Shown here piece after piece: positions 5,076 through 62,396 of a DNA stretch of 64,000 nucleotides; the stretch's first letter is position 1, and the number at the start of each line of letters is the position of its first letter. Origin of the DNA: an uncultured Alphaproteobacteria bacterium (GTDB taxonomy: Bacteria > Pseudomonadota > Alphaproteobacteria > Rs-D84); assembly GCA_947175875.1 (NCBI GenBank), contig CAMWON010000003.1, positions 72,746 through 136,745 on the forward strand, given 5' to 3'. The notes beneath the pieces are model-generated. The model was not told the DNA's origin and ran no database searches. It saw only the letters and a list, made by a program, of their open reading frames with translations. The position numbers and the translations under genes were made by a program.

Positions 5076-6842
5076 ATGTCCAACGCGTTACCAAAATCGT
5101 TATGGGGTTTTTATTTTAAGCACGCCGCACGTGGCTATTGGTGGCTGCTGGGAGTATGGGCGCTGATGGGGCTTATTGCGTCATCCGACCGCGTGCTGCA
5201 GCCGATAATGCAGGGCTGGGTGGTTGGTCTGTTTGAAACCGGTATTCCTGCCGGTATGAATTTTTTGGCATATGCGTTTCCGACGATTGCGCTGATAACG
5301 GCGATTAATGTCGGAATGTCATCTTGTCACACAATCAGAATGTGGATAATAAATCATCTCAAGCCTAAAATAGATCGTCGTATATCTGAAATGTTGACGA
5401 TGTACGTGCACGGTCAATCCATGTCGTTTTGGGCCGGTCGTATGGCGGGCCAGGTAAAAAATCAGATGAATTATATTTCTGATGGTTTTGGAACAATTCC
5501 GGATATTGTATCCAGCATATTTAGGGCCAGTACAATATTAGTCAACGGTGCATTATTGTTACAGATAAATCATTATGTTGCATACATGTTTATCGGTGTT
5601 ATTGTGTTGCGTATTTTATTTTCTTGGAAAATGTATCGCCCGATAAAAACTGCATCCAAAGACCGGTCCACTGCGGGCAGTGCATTGTCGGGGCGCTTGG
5701 TGGACAGTTTGTCAAACTTTTCCGTGGTAAAACTGTTTGCGTGTCGCAGTGACGAAGAAAAATATTTGGCGCCATCGCGCGAAAACTTTGTTCAAACACA
5801 ATTGCGCAGCGGTTTCTTACAGCGAATATTCTGGACTGTGCCCGGTGTTTTGTGGGATGTGCTGTTTGGTGTGACGCTGATGTTATGCGCGTTGTTGTAT
5901 ATGCGCGGAGAGATGACACTGTCTCAGGTTGTTGTCACAACCGGCGTGTACTTCAGTGTTATGGGTACAATCAGTCAGGTAATGGATTCATTGCCAAACA
6001 TAATTGACAAGATAGGCGCGGCAGTCAAGGCGTATGAAGAACTGGTCGTGCCGACGGATGTCACGGACGCGCCGAATGCCCCGGCATTGCATGTGACGCA
6101 CGGCAAGATAGAGTTTAAAAACGTCTGGTTCCGCTATAAAACGGGGCGTCGCTGGATTCTGCGTGATTTTAATTTGACGATAAATCCCGGCGAAAGTGTG
6201 GGACTGGTTGGGTCGTCGGGTGCCGGCAAGACAACACTGGTAAACCTGCTGATGCGTTTTTATGACCCGACCCGCGGCCAGATTTTAATCGACGGCCAGG
6301 ATATTCGCAACGTGTCCCAGGATTCTTTGCGCGCGAATATCGCCTTTATCCCCCAGGAACCCACCATGTTCAATCGCACAATCGCCGAGAATATCGGCTA
6401 TGGCCGTGCAGATGCGGATTTGCCGCAAATCCGGGCCGCCGCACGTCGCGCCGCGGCCGACGGTTTTATCATGGGCGCTGAAAAACAGTACGACACCTTG
6501 GTTGGCGACCGTGGCATGAAGATGTCCGGCGGCCAGCGCCAGCGTATCGCAATCGCGCGTGCGTTTTTAAAAGATGCCCCGATTTTGATTCTGGACGAGG
6601 CAACATCCGCTCTGGACAGTGAAACCGAGGTCGCAATTCAGAAATCTTTTGAAGAGCTGGCCCAAAACCGTACAACGATTGCCATCGCGCATCGCCTGTC
6701 CACATTGCGTAATATGAATAAAATTATAGTTATGCGCCACGGCAAGATAATAGAGCAGGGGGCGCACCGAACGCTGGTCCGGCGCGGCGGGGCGTATGCG
6801 CGCCTGTGGCGGATGCAGTCCGGCGGCTTTATTCAGGAATAA
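5076..6842 (+). CDS. ABC transporter fused permease/ATP-binding protein (MsbA-like exporter)
   Basis: Six predicted TM helices followed by Walker A GSSGAGKTT, ABC signature LSGGQRQR and Walker B ILILDEATS. The start is set at the second in-frame ATG (5076), which has a GGGGGAA RBS. The ORF track begins at 5043. Confidence 0.85.
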   Translation: MSNALPKSLWGFYFKHAARGYWWLLGVWALMGLIASSDRVLQPIMQGWVVGLFETGIPAGMNFLAYAFPTIALITAINVGMSSCHTIRMWIINHLKPKIDRRISEMLTMYVHGQSMSFWAGRMAGQVKNQMNYISDGFGTIPDIVSSIFRASTILVNGALLLQINHYVAYMFIGVIVLRILFSWKMYRPIKTASKDRSTAGSALSGRLVDSLSNFSVVKLFACRSDEEKYLAPSRENFVQTQLRSGFLQRIFWTVPGVLWDVLFGVTLMLCALLYMRGEMTLSQVVVTTGVYFSVMGTISQVMDSLPNIIDKIGAAVKAYEELVVPTDVTDAPNAPALHVTHGKIEFKNVWFRYKTGRRWILRDFNLTINPGESVGLVGSSGAGKTTLVNLLMRFYDPTRGQILIDGQDIRNVSQDSLRANIAFIPQEPTMFNRTIAENIGYGRADADLPQIRAAARRAAADGFIMGAEKQYDTLVGDRGMKMSGGQRQRIAIARAFLKDAPILILDEATSALDSETEVAIQKSFEELAQNRTTIAIAHRLSTLRNMNKIIVMRHGKIIEQGAHRTLVRRGGAYARLWRMQSGGFIQE

Positions 6843-54885: not shown

Positions 54886-55917
54886 ATGGCACGTAAAAAG
54901 AAAGAAGTCGAGGTAATCGACCACGGTGGCGCCAAGACTGTCGCAAAAAAGACGTCTTATGTCACGCGTGTTAAGCAAATATTTGCTGTTATAACCGTGA
55001 TATGGCTGGCGCTGGTAATATGGGCGCCGTTGCACGTGAAAAACACGTATTCACAGCCGATAAAGAAATCAATCGTCGTATCAATGTTCTTTGACCTGCA
55101 GCGCAATATCGTGGAACAGTATGAAAAATTGCTGGACGGGATAAAAGACGCCATTAACTTGGAAAAGCCTGTTGCCTTTGCAATCGACAAAGTAAAAATG
55201 GCCCAAGGCGCGGTTGACAAAGTGACCGACACCACGGCCCAGGCCAAGGAAGTGACCGCCAAGGCGCACGAAAGTAATGCCAAGACCAAGGAAACGACTG
55301 CGGGTCTGAAACGGTTAAGCGGCGTTGCGGGCAAGTTCGGAATAAATACCGGTGGCATAGACAGTGCACTGGACAAGGTCGATGAAAATGTTGACAAGGT
55401 TGATGCGGCCGTGGGCAAAGCGGACCAGGCCATCGCCAAAGTTGACGATGTCGCCGCCAAGGTTAATGCCCAGCTGGACAAGGTTGAAAATGATTTGACC
55501 GCATTACTGCAGGTTGAATTTGATAAAATGATAGACGAGGCCATAAAGAACCAGCTGGATAAAAACACCGGCGGTTTGGGGACGACATTGCTGACCAACT
55601 ACGGAATAAAGCACGTGTATCCGTGGCGTCCGTCGTCCTGGCCGGTCGCGACCAAGATTTACAATGACCTGGCAAAATCGGACGTGACGGTTATTACCAT
55701 TATAACGGACACGGTTGATAAATATTTCGGCTATGTCGCATGGGGCTTGGTCGCGGCGGCATGGATTGCAGGTTTGTACATCTGGTTAATGGTAAAGAAA
55801 AAGGTCAAGATGATGATTGCGCCGTTCCAGGTATGTCCGCGTTGTGGCCATACGTTTGTGGACAAGCGTGGTGCAATGAACTTCATAAAGATGTTGCAGC
55901 CCTGGAAATGGTTCTGA
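54886..55917 (+). CDS. hypothetical membrane protein with coiled-coil region and C-terminal CPRCGH zinc-ribbon-like motif
   Basis: Two TM helices flanking a long Ala/Lys/Asp-rich helical segment. Confidence 0.45.
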   Translation: MARKKKEVEVIDHGGAKTVAKKTSYVTRVKQIFAVITVIWLALVIWAPLHVKNTYSQPIKKSIVVSMFFDLQRNIVEQYEKLLDGIKDAINLEKPVAFAIDKVKMAQGAVDKVTDTTAQAKEVTAKAHESNAKTKETTAGLKRLSGVAGKFGINTGGIDSALDKVDENVDKVDAAVGKADQAIAKVDDVAAKVNAQLDKVENDLTALLQVEFDKMIDEAIKNQLDKNTGGLGTTLLTNYGIKHVYPWRPSSWPVATKIYNDLAKSDVTVITIITDTVDKYFGYVAWGLVAAAWIAGLYIWLMVKKKVKMMIAPFQVCPRCGHTFVDKRGAMNFIKMLQPWKWF

Positions 55918-56355: not shown

Positions 56356-56432
56356 GCGAGCGTAGCTCAGTTGGCTAGAGCGCAACCTTGCCAAGGTTGA
56401 GGTCGAGGGTTCGAGCCCCTTTGCTCGCACCA
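56356..56432 (+). tRNA. tRNA-Gly (anticodon GCC)
   Basis: GCGAGCGTAGCTCAGTTGG...ACCTTGCCAAGGT...GGTTCGAGCCC...GCTCGCACCA matches the tRNA-Gly(GCC) pattern. Confidence 0.85.
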
Positions 56433-56567
56433 AAGTTTAAAGGTCAAAGTACAATGAAATTAAATTTGAAAAAAATTTTGAATTGATACGTGCGACCATC
56501 AAAAGAAATAATGACGGACGCACTTTTCGGCGTCCGTTTTTTTAGTCCGCATCAAAAGGGAAAAGAT

Positions 56568-58034
56568 ATGTCAGAAAACAAAACAATGTCCACCAATGAA
56601 TTGGAAGCGCGCCTGCAAAAGGCTGAAAATATTCGTGCACGCGACGGCGTTGTTTGGAAAGACAAATTTGACCGCAGCGCAACCATCGCCGCGGCGCGCG
56701 AAATGGCGGACGGCGCGCCGGTGCGCTTGGCCGGACGTGTTACGGCGCTGCGTTGGCTGGGCAAGCTGATGTTCGGGCGTATCTATGACATTGACGGGGA
56801 AATTCAGTTTTCCATGTCCCGTGAAGAACTGGGCGAGGAAACATATCGTTTTATGAAGGCCAATGTCGATTTGGGCGACTTTATCGGCATCACCGGCGAA
56901 CTGTATCATACCACGGCGGGCGAATTGACCGTAAAGGTGTCGCATTATGATATTTTGTCCAAGGCTTTACGTCCGTTGCCGGAAAAGTTCCACGGCCTGA
57001 CTGATATGGAAACCCGTTACCGCCAGCGTTATTTGGACATCATCGCCAATGAAGACACGCGCCGCACGATGAAGATGCGTTTTCGCATGCTGCGCCTGAT
57101 ACGCGATTATTTGAACGACAACGGTTTTGTAGAGGTTGAAACCCCCATTATGCAGGTTGTGGCCAGCGGTGCCGCCGCGCGCCCGTTCGTCACGCACCAC
57201 AATGCGTTGGATGCCGACTTTTATCTGCGCATTGCGCCGGAATTGTTTTTAAAGCAGACGATTGCCGCCGGTTTCGACCGTGTGTTTGAACTGGGCAAAA
57301 ATTTCCGCAACGAGGGCATGGACGCCATGCACCTTCAGGAATTCACAATGCTGGAATGGTACGCTGCATATTGGGATTTTCGCAAGAACATAGATTTCTC
57401 GTGGAAGATGATTCAGAAAATCATCATGGATTTGCGCGGAACTTTGGAAATAGAATACCAGGGCACAAAACTGGACTTTTCGCGTTACGAAGAAATCGAT
57501 TACACCGCGCGCATGAACGAGCTGTTGGGTGTGGATATTTTGGAATTCAAAGACGCCGACGTGTTAAAGAAAAACCTGGCTGCGGCCGGCATGTTCCCGG
57601 CGGACGAATTGGAACCTTTAAAATCCGTCCCTGCCATTGTGGACTATGTGTTCAAGCGCAAGGTTCGCGACCAGATTATTAATCCTGCGATTGTTTATAA
57701 CTATCCGGCATACATGATACCGCTGGCACGTCGCAATGATGCGGACGGTCGTCGCATAGACATATTCCAGTTAATTGTATGCGGTGCGGAATTGATAAAG
57801 GCGTATTCCGAATTGGTAGACCCCATTATTCAGCGTGCGGCATTCGAAGAGCAGGCCCGCAACAAGGCCGCCGGCGACGACGAGGCGTTTGACCTGGACG
57901 AGGACTTCCTGCGCGCCATGGAGCACGGCATGCCGCCCATCTCAGGGCTGGGGCTGGGGATTGACCGATTCTTTTCAATCATCGCGGACGCGCCGACGCT
58001 GCGCGACGTGATATTGTTCCCAATTATGAAGTAA
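56568..58034 (+). CDS. lysS: lysine--tRNA ligase (class II)
   Basis: Class II motifs, N-terminal OB fold, and the lysS-typical FRNEG motif 2. The start is at the ATG at 56568 with an AAGG RBS. Confidence 0.9.
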   Translation: MSENKTMSTNELEARLQKAENIRARDGVVWKDKFDRSATIAAAREMADGAPVRLAGRVTALRWLGKLMFGRIYDIDGEIQFSMSREELGEETYRFMKANVDLGDFIGITGELYHTTAGELTVKVSHYDILSKALRPLPEKFHGLTDMETRYRQRYLDIIANEDTRRTMKMRFRMLRLIRDYLNDNGFVEVETPIMQVVASGAAARPFVTHHNALDADFYLRIAPELFLKQTIAAGFDRVFELGKNFRNEGMDAMHLQEFTMLEWYAAYWDFRKNIDFSWKMIQKIIMDLRGTLEIEYQGTKLDFSRYEEIDYTARMNELLGVDILEFKDADVLKKNLAAAGMFPADELEPLKSVPAIVDYVFKRKVRDQIINPAIVYNYPAYMIPLARRNDADGRRIDIFQLIVCGAELIKAYSELVDPIIQRAAFEEQARNKAAGDDEAFDLDEDFLRAMEHGMPPISGLGLGIDRFFSIIADAPTLRDVILFPIMK

Positions 58035-58053
58035 GGAAACAAAGGGGCTTTAT

Positions 58054-59469
58054 ATGACCCAGGATATTGTGGAAAGTAATGCGGAAATTCAGGCGATGGT
58101 TGCCGATAATGATCGGCGCAATCTGGCTGTAATTGAACGTGCGCGCGCCTCGGGCCGCATCAATGACGAGGCGGCACGTTATCTCTCCGTTTTATATTCC
58201 GATGGCCTGGGCTGGTTCCGCGAGGTGTTTTATTTCTTAGGCAAATGCTTTGGTGCGCCAAAGGCACCGGTTATGCGTTACGACTATGAAACGGACAGCG
58301 CGATTGACGAACCGATAAAGATTGCCGACATAAATCCATTGACTCCGTATCTGGTTCAGCATCGTCTGGACGCCGACCCGATGCGCAATCAGTTTTTTAA
58401 CAGCGGCCGCGGCCACAAGATAGATTTGGCGGTATCGTCAATCGTCACGGTAATTGTCGGCGCGCAGAAAAGTGTGGACCGCGCCCTGGACAAGGTTACG
58501 GGAAAGTATTACGCGCGTTACGTCGATGAGGTTTGTGACACGGTACACCGTGTCATAGCCTCGCACGAGCGCGAGGCTTCCGCCAAGGCTGTTGCGGACA
58601 AGGTTCGTGCAAAGCTGTCGGAAAAGTATATTTCCGCCGCATCTGAAGCGGTGCTGTCAATCATCGGCCGCGGTCACGAGAATATCGCGGTGGAACTGGT
58701 GCGCGCACTGGATCGTGTGCCGCGCCCGCGCACGCGGCTTCAGGACGTATGGCGCGTAAAGTGCCTGTTTGATTTGATACCCCAGGCCCGCACGTTTATC
58801 GAGCGTGTTCATCAAATGATGCCGGACCGCGTGTTATCCGTGCGTGATAATTTCTATGATATGGACAACCCGCGTAATTATCGCGATGCAAAGCTTATCA
58901 TAAATATCGGCACCAAAGACGATGTTGTTCCAATGGAAATCATCTGCCAGGTGCGCACGTTCTTTGAATACGAGCGCAAAACTCACGGCGGATACGAGGT
59001 TTCGCGCAAAGCCAGCGGCAAAAAGAGCGAGAATATAGAGCGCCGCCTGGCGGACTTCATGGAAGGGGGCGTCAAAGAATACAATTTGATGGTCTGCAAC
59101 TGCCTTGAAGATTTGTTCGAGCGTGTGGGCTGGAATATTTTATATATGCAGGATAACGGCGCGTCAATGTTTGACGGATTCCCGCGCGACTGTACGTTGC
59201 ATTATCCGCAAAAGATATATGATGTCATTATGGACAAGCTTGACAACGCGCTTGAGAACGAGGTGTTTCACGTAACGACCGCACCGGCAAAGCTAACCCA
59301 GGCCCAAGAGTCCAAGATATTCCACTACATGGCGCGTTTTGTACTGGTTGCCGCCATGCCGTATATGCAGCGCGGCTGGGCCGTGCCGTCCGACACCATG
59401 GCGGGCAAATTGTTTAACTTTGTCATGAACGAGGTCCAGCGTTATTATAAAAAGCCTACCAATGACTAG
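58054..59469 (+). CDS. hypothetical protein with possible RelA/SpoT-like nucleotidyltransferase domain
   Basis: The central region DVWRVKCLF...NPRNYRDAKLIINIG...MEIICQVRTFFEYERKTHGGYEV resembles the synthetase-domain motifs D-x-x-G-x-R, NGY..H and E-x-Q-I-R-T ... H-x-x-Y-K. The call is tentative. Confidence 0.5.
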   Translation: MTQDIVESNAEIQAMVADNDRRNLAVIERARASGRINDEAARYLSVLYSDGLGWFREVFYFLGKCFGAPKAPVMRYDYETDSAIDEPIKIADINPLTPYLVQHRLDADPMRNQFFNSGRGHKIDLAVSSIVTVIVGAQKSVDRALDKVTGKYYARYVDEVCDTVHRVIASHEREASAKAVADKVRAKLSEKYISAASEAVLSIIGRGHENIAVELVRALDRVPRPRTRLQDVWRVKCLFDLIPQARTFIERVHQMMPDRVLSVRDNFYDMDNPRNYRDAKLIINIGTKDDVVPMEIICQVRTFFEYERKTHGGYEVSRKASGKKSENIERRLADFMEGGVKEYNLMVCNCLEDLFERVGWNILYMQDNGASMFDGFPRDCTLHYPQKIYDVIMDKLDNALENEVFHVTTAPAKLTQAQESKIFHYMARFVLVAAMPYMQRGWAVPSDTMAGKLFNFVMNEVQRYYKKPTND

Positions 59470-59591
59470 GAAATCAAACTAACGGGCGTCGCCCGTTATT
59501 TTCTTGCTTTAATTTGCCAAATAACGAACAATGTATTCAGGTCATGCGGGAAAACGTGCGGCCATAACAAGCATAACATAAGGACAAGATT

Positions 59592-59933
59592 ATGCGTCAA
59601 GGTAAAGTAAAATGGTATAACGGCAAAAAGTGCTTTGGGTTTATTACACCGGATGCGCCGAATGCCGATGGCAATATGGATGATGTTTTCGTTCATTCCA
59701 GCGCTTTGAAAGAAGCCGGAATCAGATTTTTAAATGAAAATGATATCGTAGAGTTTGAAGAGGAGGTTCGCGGCGACAAACTGTCCGTCACGACAATCAA
59801 AGTTATTCAGCGCGACGAAGAATCTGCGCGCCGTTTCCACGAACGCCGTGCCGAACACCGCCGTTCCACCGAAGAGCGCAAAGCCCGCACCGAGCGCAGC
59901 GAGCGTCGCGGTTTTGCTTTCTGGAAAAAATAA
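59592..59933 (+). CDS. cspA: cold-shock protein with basic/acidic C-terminal extension
   Basis: CSD motifs KWYNGKKCFGFI and VFVHSS are followed by a ~40-aa Arg/Glu-rich tail. Confidence 0.8.
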   Translation: MRQGKVKWYNGKKCFGFITPDAPNADGNMDDVFVHSSALKEAGIRFLNENDIVEFEEEVRGDKLSVTTIKVIQRDEESARRFHERRAEHRRSTEERKARTERSERRGFAFWKK

Positions 59934-59943
59934 TTTTCAGATA

Positions 59944-59971
59944 AAAAATCCCCCGGTTGGGGGATTTTTTT
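59944..59971. terminator. bidirectional intrinsic terminator AAAAAATCCCCCGGTTGGGGGATTTTTTT
   Basis: GC hairpin with a flanking A-run and T-run, between convergent genes. Confidence 0.6.
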
Positions 59972-60401
59972 AATTAAACCATACGTATGCGCGTCCGTCC
60001 GGCGGATTCCCGGCCGGCTCGGTCATGGAAACGGTATCAAACCGGGTGTCCGCACCCGCCGCCACCGTGCCGTCTGTCGCGCCCACCGGCAGGCGCGCAA
60101 TATTTACCGTCCCGGACACCAGATTGTCCGCATTTGTATTGTCCACGTCCTTTACATTGCCCAGACCCACCTGTGCCGCCGTTACCGCGTGCGGATTTTC
60201 AGTGTTGCCCGTATGTGCCGCCAATGCCTCAGATATTGCCGGTACGCCCAAAGACGATACGATTTGATGAACATACGCGGAACTGGCAATCCCGATTCCG
60301 GACGTGGCCGCCGGTGCCGCGTTCCCCTCATCGGCATATGCGCCGCTTGTTATAATTGTCGTCGTAACAATTGGAATTAAAAAAAGATAGCGCTTCCGCA
60401 T
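59970..60401 (-). CDS. small secreted Ala/Gly/Thr-rich protein
   Basis: The start MRKRYLFLIPIVTTTIITSGAYA is a signal peptide. The mature part has ENPHAVTAAQVGLGNV...GTVNIARLP, a motif pattern reminiscent of phage tail-fibre segments. Confidence 0.45.
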   Translation of the reverse strand: MRKRYLFLIPIVTTTIITSGAYADEGNAAPAATSGIGIASSAYVHQIVSSLGVPAISEALAAHTGNTENPHAVTAAQVGLGNVKDVDNTNADNLVSGTVNIARLPVGATDGTVAAGADTRFDTVSMTEPAGNPPDGRAYVWFN

Positions 60402-60530
60402 CATTTCCCCCCACGCCAAAATACACTATTCTTTACGTTGCCAGAATTATTTCATATTTTCGACAATATTGCCAGAATTTTTTTGTAAGAAAAAATCCGC
60501 CTTTTTACAGGCGGATTCAAGTTGTTGCGC

Positions 60531-62396
60531 TTATTTTTGGATAAAATGAACGCTGTACTGCGGCTTTTTATCCGGCCCCAACGCCGCGCGCACAACCCTG
60601 TTGGACGCAGTTTGCACCGCGCGGACAAGGTTGTCGCGGTCCTTGCGCTCCGCCTTGGACAAATCGTCGATTGCCTTTGTGATTTCAATCTGAATCTGGC
60701 GCTTCATAAATCCTGTTTCGTCGGATTCAAATATACCCGCACTGGATACCTCTGGCACGCCTTTCAAGAATCCGCGTTTATCCACCGGCAGGGTGACGAA
60801 CACGGCGCCGTTGGCGGCGATTTTCTTGCGGTTTTTATACACCTGGTCGTTTTTGCTGCGCTCGGTTTCGCCTTCCATAACGACAAAACCGGTCTCGATT
60901 GTTTCGGCGACATACGGTTCTTTCCCATCGGCCAGGGCAATCATTTCACCGTTGTGCACAACCATCATGTACTTTGCGCCGCCGCGTTCCATCGCCATCT
61001 TGCCGTTCAGCATTTCGTTTATATAATCGCCGTGCATCGGAATTGAGACCTGGGGATGCACCATGTCGTAAAAGCGTTCCAGTTCCGGACGACCGGCGTG
61101 TCCGCTGGCGTGCAGATGGTCCGTGTCAAATATCGTATGCGTTTTGATGCCCATTCGCGCCAGCTTGTTATACAGATACGAAACGTCCTGTTCGCGGCCC
61201 GGAATAATAATCGCACTGAACAGAATTGTGTCTGTCGGCTGCAGTTTCATTTCCTTTACCTGGCCGCGGCACAAACGTGTCAGCATCGCGAACTGTTCGC
61301 CCTGGGAGCCGGTTAAGAATATTGCCTGTTTTTCTGCCGGCAAATCTTTGATTTCGCTGTGCAGATATACTTCTTCCTTGCCCAGATACCCGAATTTGAT
61401 ACCCATTTCGCGGAATTCCGGCAGACCGACGTACGGCACCGGGTTCGGGTTGCTGCGTTCTTTAATCGCGGCAACGCGGCCTGCGGCGCGGGCGGCCTCT
61501 GCAAACATTTTCAGACGCGCGATACTGCGTGAATATCCGGTCACGATAACGCGGCCCGGCGCCTCTTTCATCAGGCGTTCAAATGTTTCGCGAACTTCTG
61601 TCTCGGTCGTCTGCTTTGCCTGGCGCGATGCGGATGTGGAATCACATGCGCACGCCAACAGTTTCGGGTCCGAACCTATTTCGCGCAACCGCGCAAAGTC
61701 TGTCGGATTTTCCACCGGGTTGTCGTCGTTGAATGTCCAGTCGCCCGTATGCAGGATTTTGCCTGCGGGCGTTTTTACAATCAGCATCTGCGCCTCTGGC
61801 ACAGAGTGGGAAACATGGAATGTTTCAACCTCAAACGGGGCCAAATCCAGTGTCGCGCCATTGTGGTCGAATACAACAATGTCCTTTTTCGGATTGAAAT
61901 CCATCTCAACCCCTTCGAACGTGCGGCGAATTATTTCGCCCGGAAAGCGCGTGCAGTAAATAGGCTTTCTAAATTTCGGCCATATGAATTTCAGCGCGCC
62001 GATATGGTCTTCGTGACCGTGCGTGATAACGAACCCGACCACGTCCTTCTTGCGCTTTTCCAGCCAGCGTGTGTCACAGTACTGAACGTCGCCGGCACCG
62101 ATTTCTTCTTCCAGAAATCCCATACCGCAGTCCACGACCAGATACTTTCCCTTGTACTTATAGACATACATGTTCTGGCCGATATGTTCCAATCCGCCCA
62201 GCGCCATAAAGTACATCTTGTTGTCGTTTTTGTCCCCCTCGTGCGCGGGCATGCCGGAAATTTTTGCCGGCGCGTCCGGACGCGGTCCCTTTTTCGGTGC
62301 GCGCGGCCCGGATTTTGCCTGTGCCTGAGGCTTGTTTTGCGGTTTCGCCGCCGCCTGGGGCGCCGGTGCCGCTTTTTTTTCTCGAACTTTTACCAT
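60531..62396 (-). CDS. rnj: ribonuclease J (MBL + beta-CASP)
   Basis: Motif VITHGHEDHIGAL plus beta-CASP motifs. The ~60-aa Lys/Pro/Ala-rich N-terminal extension may or may not be translated (alternative start MYFMALGG at ~62216). Confidence 0.85.
   Translation of the reverse strand: MVKVREKKAAPAPQAAAKPQNKPQAQAKSGPRAPKKGPRPDAPAKISGMPAHEGDKNDNKMYFMALGGLEHIGQNMYVYKYKGKYLVVDCGMGFLEEEIGAGDVQYCDTRWLEKRKKDVVGFVITHGHEDHIGALKFIWPKFRKPIYCTRFPGEIIRRTFEGVEMDFNPKKDIVVFDHNGATLDLAPFEVETFHVSHSVPEAQMLIVKTPAGKILHTGDWTFNDDNPVENPTDFARLREIGSDPKLLACACDSTSASRQAKQTTETEVRETFERLMKEAPGRVIVTGYSRSIARLKMFAEAARAAGRVAAIKERSNPNPVPYVGLPEFREMGIKFGYLGKEEVYLHSEIKDLPAEKQAIFLTGSQGEQFAMLTRLCRGQVKEMKLQPTDTILFSAIIIPGREQDVSYLYNKLARMGIKTHTIFDTDHLHASGHAGRPELERFYDMVHPQVSIPMHGDYINEMLNGKMAMERGGAKYMMVVHNGEMIALADGKEPYVAETIETGFVVMEGETERSKNDQVYKNRKKIAANGAVFVTLPVDKRGFLKGVPEVSSAGIFESDETGFMKRQIQIEITKAIDDLSKAERKDRDNLVRAVQTASNRVVRAALGPDKKPQYSVHFIQK

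Follow-up and report, generated by a model that had tools for sequence, protein, structure and literature searches.

The gene examined here lies in a 64,000-nt stretch (the window) of the Rs-D84 Alphaproteobacteria contig CAMWON010000003.1 and encodes, directly downstream of the lysyl-tRNA synthetase (LysRS) gene lysS, a protein of 471 amino acids (aa) that we call X. X represents a new, deeply divergent branch of the RelA/SpoT homologue (RSH) synthetase fold: its core is split, its donor pocket is remodelled, and the domains on either side of the core are novel. In our best overall explanation, to which we give a probability of roughly 0.6, it is a deeply diverged RSH-fold enzyme encoded by a vertically inherited core gene of Candidatus Enterousia and relatives, which in Enterousia is linked to lysS. 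The presence of a divergent RSH-homologous, synthetase-like domain in X is in itself highly probable. RSH enzymes are central to bacterial stress signalling and, more recently, to toxin and anti-phage biology.

A RelA/SpoT-like synthetase had been suggested for this open reading frame (ORF) on the basis of three short motifs. The ORF is real and is separated from the lysS stop at 58034 by 19 nt, and the motifs occur in the order described, with DVWRVKCLF at aa 231-239, NPRNYRDAKLIINIG at aa 272-286 and MEIICQVRTFFEYERKTHGGYEV at aa 294-316. The proposed fold is supported by matches to structures in the PDB, by family profiles, by profile-profile comparison and by RelA_SpoT (PF04607) matches in a remote subfamily. 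Profile matches to the RelA_SpoT family, obtained with family profiles and in remote relatives, and a predicted nucleotidyltransferase beta-sheet core, on both of which this original prediction had staked its case, were found.

Predicted fold and remote homology

The AlphaFold2 model of X (predicted local distance difference test, pLDDT, 83; predicted template modelling score, pTM, 0.81) shows the secondary-structure order beta-alpha-beta-alpha-beta-beta-beta-alpha, which is that of the RSH synthetase core. As had been proposed as a check, the model was compared with the PDB, and small alarmone synthetases (SAS) including RelQ came first. The top ~45 Foldseek matches were essentially all SAS or Rel proteins (probability 1.0, TM(target) 0.42-0.49), among them RelQ 5DED (E 1.4e-3), RelP, YwaC, the exported SAS 8VX3 and RelSeq. 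RelA/SpoT proteins were also the top matches in the viral structure library BFVD. An independent model of a member of the remote subfamily (pLDDT 91, pTM 0.88) led to the same families; its top 19 PDB matches were RSH synthetases, with E-values down to 4.4e-4 over 196-224 aligned columns, and included Mtb Rel, S. aureus Rel, FaRel2 (8PU3) and RelA.

The BFVD matches of the X model include large phage 'polyvalent' proteins of 1000-1300 aa, some of which are annotated as RelA/SpoT, DdrB-like or ART-PolyVal. One of them, A0A516LGL6 (1321 aa), matches the model over 427 aligned columns. Judged from these matches, the closest structural relatives of X outside cells may be the RelA/SpoT-like modules that such phage proteins carry.

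Since RSH synthetases and Pol-beta nucleotidyltransferases share a fold, the likeness to RSH might be superficial and X a generic Pol-beta-type enzyme that transfers a nucleoside monophosphate instead of pyrophosphate. GLD-2 poly(A) polymerases and Pol beta indeed appear low in the Foldseek lists. However, generic nucleotidyltransferases rank below the SAS/Rel proteins, with E-values 50- to 1000-fold worse and probabilities of 0.1-0.2 compared with 1.0. The hG[GS]...[DE]h[DE]h signature is absent, strand 2 of X carries a single acidic residue (D231-V-W233), and sequence profiles of the X family retrieve RSH synthetases only. We therefore consider this explanation very improbable, and a classical Pol-beta identity was rejected on the fold ranking and the missing motif.

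At the sequence level X is not recognizable on its own. The single sequence gave nothing relevant against Pfam, NCBIfam, PADLOC, PHROGs or PDB sequences, and the family is absent from the first four of these collections. A profile of X relatives at least 70% identical to it (A1) found nothing among PDB sequences, and divergent members were needed. A hidden Markov model (HMM) built from 11 diverse family members (A2) matched YwaC/SAS2 of B. subtilis at E 2.5e-4 among 177,635 PDB sequences, and the next three matches were also SAS. A profile of the spliced catalytic core gave seven PDB matches at E<=1, all of them RSH synthetases, including Tas1.

For profile-profile comparison with hhalign we used an RSH reference of 13 verified sequences, which comprised RelQ (confirmed to be identical to 5DED), two streptococcal SAS, RelA and SpoT of E. 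coli, the toxic SAS (toxSAS) Phrann gp29 and other phage RSHs. The full-length X family aligned to this reference with P 6.4e-5, and removal of the insert described below improved the match to a probability of 92.7%, P 4.4e-7 and a score of 47.5. By comparison, 150 column shuffles scored 11.2 +/- 1.8 (maximum 17.4) and the reversed profile 14.5, so that the observed score lies ~20 standard deviations above the shuffled mean and the resemblance of the motifs to RSH far exceeds chance. Moreover, PF04607 gave a weak, sub-threshold match in 14 of the 38 members of the remote subfamily (best E 4.2e-4), and any other family matched at most three of them. X thus owes its place in the RSH fold to structure, family profiles and the remote subfamily. 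Weak SPOR matches in 12 of 50 members of the X subfamily were judged spurious. The published census of the RSH superfamily, with 30 SAS subfamilies, is HMM-based (PMC7229694), and the X family would be invisible to such a census.

Domain anatomy

The gene and the parts of its product are as follows.

58054 to 59469, forward strand: gene of X, a divergent RSH-fold core with family-specific N-terminal, insert and C-terminal helical regions
58072 to 58251, forward strand: N-terminal three-helix region, aa 7-66 (helices 7-33, 38-49 and 51-66, pLDDT >90)
58273 to 58437, forward strand: small beta-sheet (aa 74-104) and loop HRLDADPMRNQFF (aa 103-115)
58441 to 58500, forward strand: Syn1-like element, strand aa 130-135 and helix aa 141-149, VIVGAQK139SVDR143ALDK147
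58504 to 58737, forward strand: helical insert between Syn1 and Syn2, ~75 aa, aa 151-228 (helices 151-171, 174-190, 196-204, 209-220 and 225-228)
58738 to 58770, forward strand: Syn2-like strand LQD231VWR234VK236CLF (strand aa 233-239)
between Syn2 and Syn3: core helix aa 242-255 and strand aa 260-265
58867 to 58905, forward strand: Syn3 or G-loop-like segment, N272-P-R274-N-Y276-R277-D278-A-K280 (strand 278-284)
58930 to 59010, forward strand: Syn4/Syn5-like strand and helix, aa 293-319 (strand 293-300, helix 301-319)
59029 to 59451, forward strand: C-terminal all-helical domain, aa 326-466 (helices 326-364, 386-401, 416-433 and 449-466)

The core of X is split into Syn1 (aa 130-149), an insert of ~75 aa and Syn2-5 (aa 229-319). 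Syn1 was located by hhalign, which aligned the X segment VIVGAQKSVDRALDK to FVTGRVKPVASILEK of RelQ; the triphosphate-binding Syn1 helix of RelQ, FVTGRVK48PVAS52ILEK56, was also aligned to Syn1 of X in the HMM search. Joining aa 122-152 to the core raised the hhalign score from 39.1 to 47.5 (+8.4). The full-length alignment had placed Syn1 at aa ~203-212 (GRGHEN) instead. This placement was rejected, as the segment is deleted in remote relatives, forms a helix-loop-helix and not a strand-helix, and aa 195-225 add only 2 to the score. The Syn4/Syn5 part reads E295-I-I-C-Q299-V-R301-T ... T310-H311-G-G-Y314-E315 and was aligned to EIQIRT...H..Y.K of SAS, as the Syn3 segment was to GYRSxH.

The insert measures ~75 aa in X and ~45 aa in the remote subfamily, compared with 15 residues in RelQ. 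It opens with the invariant residues K151-Y152-Y153-x-x-Y156; the invariant stretch G-K-Y-Y-x-x-Y (aa 150-156, window 58501-58521) that directly follows the Syn1 helix thus holds a YxxY motif, which may be a cis-acting element or may simply belong to the packing of the core. The N-terminal helices are conserved throughout the family, with N23, I27, I36, L44 and Y48 invariant. The loop HRLDADPMRNQFF (window 58360-58398) is invariant in 50 subfamily members, although confidence in the model is lowest there (pLDDT 50-72). Possibly it is a flexible candidate loop for binding of a substrate or partner, or a lid.

The N- and C-terminal regions had been described as unrelated to RSH enzymes. This stands for the C-terminal domain, which is family-specific and has no significant structural or sequence match (best non-RSH PDB match E about 0.08), whereas the N-terminal part holds Syn1, which had been missed. 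The reported lack of an HD hydrolase domain proved correct, and no HD, TGS, ACT or other Pfam or NCBIfam domain was detected in X (no match to PF01966, PF13328, PF02824 or PF13291).

Active-site residues

Down to ~17-22% identity, the only invariant residues of the catalytic core are K139, R143, K147, D231, R234, Y276, K280, E295 and H311, and the remote subfamily independently keeps this same set. Y314 is nearly invariant across the family. In the FaRel2-APCPP structure the donor adenine is coordinated by R64, R95, G93 and Q147, and E145 confers adenosine specificity; the triphosphate is bound by R64, K66, S70, K74 and R77 and Mg2+ by D90, and Y128 in the G-loop stacks against the acceptor base (PMC11782079). 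Going by the motif spacing, which is the same as in RelQ, the X residues would correspond to those of FaRel2 as follows.

Kept: K139 for K66, K147 for K74, D231 for D90, Y276 for Y128 and E295 for E145
Substituted in Syn1: A137 for R64 and R143 for S70
Substituted in Syn2: R234 (a new invariant Arg) for G93 and K236 (Thr in remote relatives) for R95
Substituted in Syn4: I297 (Gln in remote relatives) for Q147

Measured against the canonical motifs, Syn1 (R-x-K-x3-S-x3-K) reads A137-x-K139-x3-R143-x3-K147 in X, with both lysines invariant, the first Arg lost and the Ser changed to an invariant Arg. In Syn2 (D-x2-G-x-R) D231 is invariant, the Gly has become the invariant R234 and the Arg K236. 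Syn3 (G-Y-x-S-x-H) retains the invariant Y276, aligned to the acceptor-stacking Tyr of SAS, and carries the invariant K280 in place of the His. Syn4 (E-x-Q-x-R-T) keeps E295 and has I297 for the Gln, with Q299 and R301 displaced by two positions, and Syn5 (H-x2-Y-K) conserves H311 and Y314 with E315 for the Lys. The remote subfamily retains the canonical E-x-Q-x-K of Syn4. Both canonical arginines that sandwich the donor adenine are hence replaced in X. From the sequence comparison, the donor-base pocket of X appears to be rebuilt, and the metal-binding, phosphate-binding and acceptor-stacking positions appear to be retained under selection. This retention argues for an active enzyme, and X is probably an active phosphotransferase.

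Several observations weigh against our best overall explanation. The E-values obtained with Foldseek are only moderate (1e-3 to 4e-4), and no more than ~125-145 residues of X superpose on RSH enzymes. PF04607 did not match X at E<=10 and matched 0 of 50 members of its subfamily, which therefore represents the more derived branch. Seven canonical catalytic positions are changed in X (Arg to A137, Ser to R143, Gly to R234, Arg to K236, His to K280, Gln to I297 and Lys to E315), and X could therefore be inactive or catalyse a different transfer. Finally, a nucleotide as acceptor falls somewhat short of even odds, the basis for preferring it over tRNA being only the conserved basic residues around Y276 (R274, R277 and K280) and the non-toxin genomic behaviour of the gene.

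If X were inactive, it would be a pseudo-enzyme that uses the RSH fold as a sensor of nucleotides or alarmones, or as a structural or regulatory partner. The loss of both adenine-sandwiching arginines, the changed Syn4 Gln and Syn5 Lys in the X subfamily, the undetected PF04607 and the non-catalytic additions, which make up ~60% of the protein, are in line with this. However, what remains invariant between the most distant members are the positions that bind metal and phosphate or stack the acceptor (D231, E295, K139, K147 and Y276), and the remote subfamily retains the canonical E-x-Q-x-K, a pattern as expected from selection on catalysis. We consider a pseudo-enzyme improbable.

With regard to the acceptor, alarmone synthetases carry a large positive patch beside the acceptor Tyr that is much smaller in the tRNA-targeting FaRel2 (PMC11782079). 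In X the invariant R274, R277 and K280 flank Y276, and these basic residues lean weakly towards a phosphorylated nucleotide as the acceptor.

Distribution and selection

X had been called an orphan, which does not hold. Its homologues form 614 clusters at 90% identity (E<=1e-3), all of which are unnamed or named only 'hypothetical protein' and come from uncultured Alphaproteobacteria; the best 120 clusters are 70-100% identical to X over the full length. When one genome per species was scanned with the A1 profile, relatives turned up in 257 species-level reference genomes of a single clade, all of uncultured gut Alphaproteobacteria and many of them Candidatus Enterousia, including a closed chromosome of 958 kb. 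Enterousia, of the order Rs-D84, has genomes of ~0.75-1.0 Mb and lacks the TCA cycle and respiratory chains (PMC12306168). The HMM search of 1.84 billion representative proteins retrieved only 47 representatives of the X family, which is therefore narrow. Intermediate members (P0121-P0126) are 37-58% identical to X, and members of the remote subfamily (P0153, P0159, P0160, P0162 and P0165) 17-22%.

For the same genome pairs, the ratio of non-synonymous to synonymous substitution rates (dN/dS) was 0.03-0.08 for X compared with 0.02-0.04 for lysS. GC content, GC at third codon positions and codon usage of the X gene agree with those of the neighbouring genes. X has no match in PADLOC or PHROGs, no phage-borne relatives or viral contigs with X were found, and no antitoxin-like gene adjoins it. 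X behaves as a native, vertically inherited core gene under purifying selection, unlike a toxSAS or a defence module.

These data bear on the idea that X is a toxSAS-type toxin or a CapRel-like fused toxin-antitoxin sensor of phages with the C-terminal domain as cis-inhibitor. Like CapRel, X is a single polypeptide with an RSH core and a C-terminal extension, and it has a YxxY motif (Y153-x-x-Y156); toxSAS antitoxins use a YXXY motif to plug the site of the donor adenine (PMC11782079). In addition, one divergent homologue adjoins an ORF with a CdiA_C toxin domain and another a GIY-YIG nuclease gene. Yet the arginines on which the YXXY plug stacks in toxSAS are absent from X, and its C-terminal domain is all-helical and not a pseudo-zinc-finger. 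There is no PADLOC match, phage- or plasmid-like context or phage copy; all 84 Enterousia-type loci examined, of the 257 species genomes with a relative, carry X in a housekeeping operon; like lysS, the X gene has a low dN/dS, and its codon usage is native. A toxin, one of the options named in the original prediction, thus finds no support in the context or conservation of X, and we regard it as most unlikely.

One genome of the remote subfamily (L101) encodes a canonical long RSH with HD, RelA_SpoT, TGS and ACT domains six genes from its X homologue. Since both occur in this genome, the X family is a lineage apart and not a decayed Rel. A search with this long RSH for canonical Rel/SpoT in Enterousia returned only close relatives from larger genomes, and none is encoded in the window or its 11-kb flanks.

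The lysS-X operon and its surroundings

The X ORF starts with ATG according to both the ORF list and the raw sequence, and the list holds no ORF of 60 aa or more that overlaps it in another frame. The features around it are the following.

56568 to 58034, forward strand: lysS, class II lysyl-tRNA synthetase, 488 aa from the ATG at 56568, first gene of the operon
58035 to 58053, forward strand: spacer between lysS and X, 19 nt, TAAGGAAACAAAGGGGCTTTATATG
59480 to 59508, forward strand: terminator-like hairpin (59480-59498; 8 bp, 5 GC) with a T-rich tail, 10 nt past the X stop
59592 to 59933, forward strand: cold-shock-domain gene, 113 aa (PF00313, E 4.8e-15)

The lysS product matches PF00152 (E 4.5e-74) and the anticodon-binding OB fold PF01336. 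The mechanically called lysS ORF from the GTG at 56490 is probably too long; the true start is probably the ATG at 56568, as relatives measure 488-491 aa. The spacer holds a purine-rich, Shine-Dalgarno-like stretch, GGAAACAAAGGGG, and would not fit a terminator or promoter; no terminator-like site was found between the two genes. Across loci, lysS lies directly upstream of X in 84 of 84 cases, with regions further upstream and downstream being variable, and the distance from the lysS stop to the X start is 1-28 nt (median 16, 82 genomes). In view of this constant order and short gap, co-transcription of lysS and X, which had been anticipated, is as well supported as sequence alone allows. The transcript likely ends at the hairpin after X, and the cold-shock-domain gene, found downstream of X in 72 of 81 loci, probably forms a separate transcript.

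The lysS link does not extend to the whole family. Two homologues with 45% and 37% identity sit behind ruvB, another with 37% identity has a U32 peptidase gene downstream, and remote relatives neighbour a divergent YbaK-type tRNA_edit gene or a Sel1-repeat gene, in each case with no lysS nearby. The lysS-X operon is clade-specific, and sister lineages place the X gene behind ruvB. Thus, the link to a tRNA synthetase that had seemed intriguing is constant within one clade and does not reach beyond it, which weakens the suggested functional connection to tRNA or LysRS. Coupling to LysRS or tRNA-Lys as the logic of the whole family was rejected, given the homologues of 37-45% identity next to ruvB or the U32 peptidase gene. 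What recurs among the loci is a gene joined to housekeeping transcripts of constitutive expression and not a specific partnership with LysRS.

A related explanation is that X is a physiological tRNA 3'-end pyrophosphokinase, with toxSAS-like chemistry used for regulation instead of killing, that acts on tRNA-Lys or other tRNAs. This would explain the coupling to lysS in 84 of 84 loci and the neighbourhood rich in translation and RNA genes (tgt, tRNA-Gly, RNase J and alaS), and a YbaK-type tRNA_edit gene stands divergent from the X homologue in two remote relatives. X also shares the RSH fold with the tRNA-pyrophosphorylating FaRel2, CapRel and PhRel, and has conserved, ordered N-terminal helices, where the ordered N-terminus of FaRel2 anchors the tRNA (PMC11782079). 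On the other hand, the lysS link is confined to one clade, with ruvB, U32 peptidase or Sel1 neighbours elsewhere, and X has no antitoxin or hydrolase partner. The basic cluster beside the acceptor Tyr resembles alarmone synthetases and not tRNA-targeting enzymes; the neutral isoelectric point of X (6.8) is in itself uninformative for tRNA binding. Overall, we consider a tRNA substrate of this kind improbable.

In the neighbourhoods of distant homologues, the start of the X homologue and the stop of ruvB overlap by 11 nt in L087 (2-418), whereas in L085 the two genes are separated by an ORF of 117 aa with the CdiA_C toxin domain (5379-5732, E 1e-17). The YbaK-type aminoacyl-tRNA editing gene (PF04073, 157 aa) lies divergently upstream of the X homologue in L086 (4841-5314) and L100 (5370-5843); as these genomes are closely related, the arrangement may reflect shared ancestry and not independent association.

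Within the window, a tRNA-Gly(GCC) gene (56356-56432) is followed by a strong hairpin with a T-run (56513-56538). This hairpin is located within the mechanical lysS ORF and overlaps with a site that resembles a promoter (56483-56512). The forward-strand ORF that separates tgt from lysS (54886-55917, 343 aa) matches no Pfam domain. Its product, which has two hydrophobic segments and a CxxC at the C-terminus, is kept in the same position across the clade at 64-96% identity and constitutes a clade-specific membrane protein. The cold-shock protein combines a normal cold-shock domain (aa 3-64) with an Arg/Glu-rich tail of ~50 aa, which is unusual among CspA-type proteins. Between its gene and that of RNase J lies an ORF on the reverse strand (59970-60419, 149 aa) whose product resembles a signal peptide at its N-terminus and matches no Pfam domain. 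Many related loci lack it and the others have it at only 51-66% identity, so that it is a variable and possibly surface-exposed protein. The product of the RNase J gene (60531-62396, reverse strand) has beta-CASP, Lactamase_B and RNase_J_C domains, and its catalytic domain is preceded by ~60 additional N-terminal residues with a high content of Lys, Ala and Pro.

Proposed mechanism and significance

We propose that X acts as a Mg2+-dependent phosphotransferase, whose activity, chemistry and substrates are all inferred. It would bind a nucleoside triphosphate donor, probably ATP, via K139, R143 and K147, with D231 holding the metal and E295 retained at the position of the Syn4 Glu. An acceptor that contains a purine and stacks on Y276 would then receive the beta,gamma-pyrophosphate at its 3'-OH. 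A free nucleotide, which would yield a product of the (pp)pNpp type, is a likelier acceptor than the 3' end of a tRNA. Because the adenine-sandwiching arginines are lost and the invariant R234 is new, X may depart from known RSHs in the specificity or geometry of donor binding. Recruitment of the gene into the lysS transcript in Enterousia would have resulted in constitutive, translation-linked expression.

A further possibility, which we rate as unlikely, is that X makes something other than (p)ppGpp or (pp)pApp and founds a family of non-toxic RSH-fold enzymes that belong to the core genome and have a re-engineered donor pocket. X would then either produce a new nucleotide messenger or pyrophosphorylate tRNA 3' ends in a physiological and reversible way, and it would be made stoichiometrically with LysRS in bacteria that retain ~900 genes.

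Returning to X as a deeply diverged RSH-fold enzyme, a divergent RSH fold under housekeeping-grade selection in genomes that lack the TCA cycle and respiration suggests that the fold was recruited for a constitutive job with an altered donor site. The product of X, once known, would add to the recognized alarmone-type nucleotides or modifications of tRNA ends, or show how growth signalling is coupled to translation in a minimal gut symbiont. The assignment also provides an annotation for more than 600 protein clusters that are now 'hypothetical'.

Comparison with known systems

X resembles the tRNA 3'-CCA pyrophosphokinases FaRel2, CapRel and PhRel in its RSH fold, in the ordered N-terminal helices on the core and in the lack of a hydrolase. 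It differs from toxSAS in having neither an antitoxin gene nor a fused pseudo-zinc-finger domain nor a defence-island, phage or plasmid context, in its strong purifying selection, vertical inheritance and housekeeping operon, and in the absence of the donor-site arginines targeted by YXXY.

Similar to Tas1 (6OX6) and the MuF adenosine 3'-pyrophosphokinase domains, X is too divergent for easy detection by HMMs and has its core within a larger protein. Tas1 was weakly retrieved by the spliced-core profile of X via its Syn1-Syn2 region. However, Tas1 and MuF domains are secreted or polymorphic toxin modules with immunity proteins, whereas X has no secretion signal or immunity gene and stands in a core-genome context.

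The long RSHs Rel, RelA and SpoT share a homologous SYNTH domain with X. The G-loop NPR-NYRDAK of X is similar to the RelA sequence NPKPNGYQSIH, and in Syn5 the His and Tyr are spaced as in long RSHs (H-x-x-Y); X lacks their HD, TGS, AH/RIS and ACT domains.

X also lies outside the single-domain SAS type, in which RelQ, RelP and RelV of ~200-250 aa consist of SYNTH and short oligomerisation helices. Compared with RelQ/SAS1 and RelP/SAS2 (5DED, 5F2V, 6FGK and 6EWZ; PF04607; ~210 aa), X has 471 aa, a core that is split by the ~75-aa insert, and N-terminal (~128 aa) and C-terminal (~145 aa) regions in place of the tetramerising C-terminal helices. It has lost the Arg pair (A137 and K236 or Thr), carries R234 at the Gly position and K280 for the His, and scores below all PF04607 thresholds. 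Nevertheless, RelQ and RelP are the best structural and sequence matches of X. They have the same core order and, like X, no HD hydrolase domain, and they share with it the Mg-binding Asp (D231), the Syn4 Glu (E295), the Syn1 lysines (K139 and K147), the G-loop Tyr (Y276) and the Syn5 His and Tyr (H311 and Y314).

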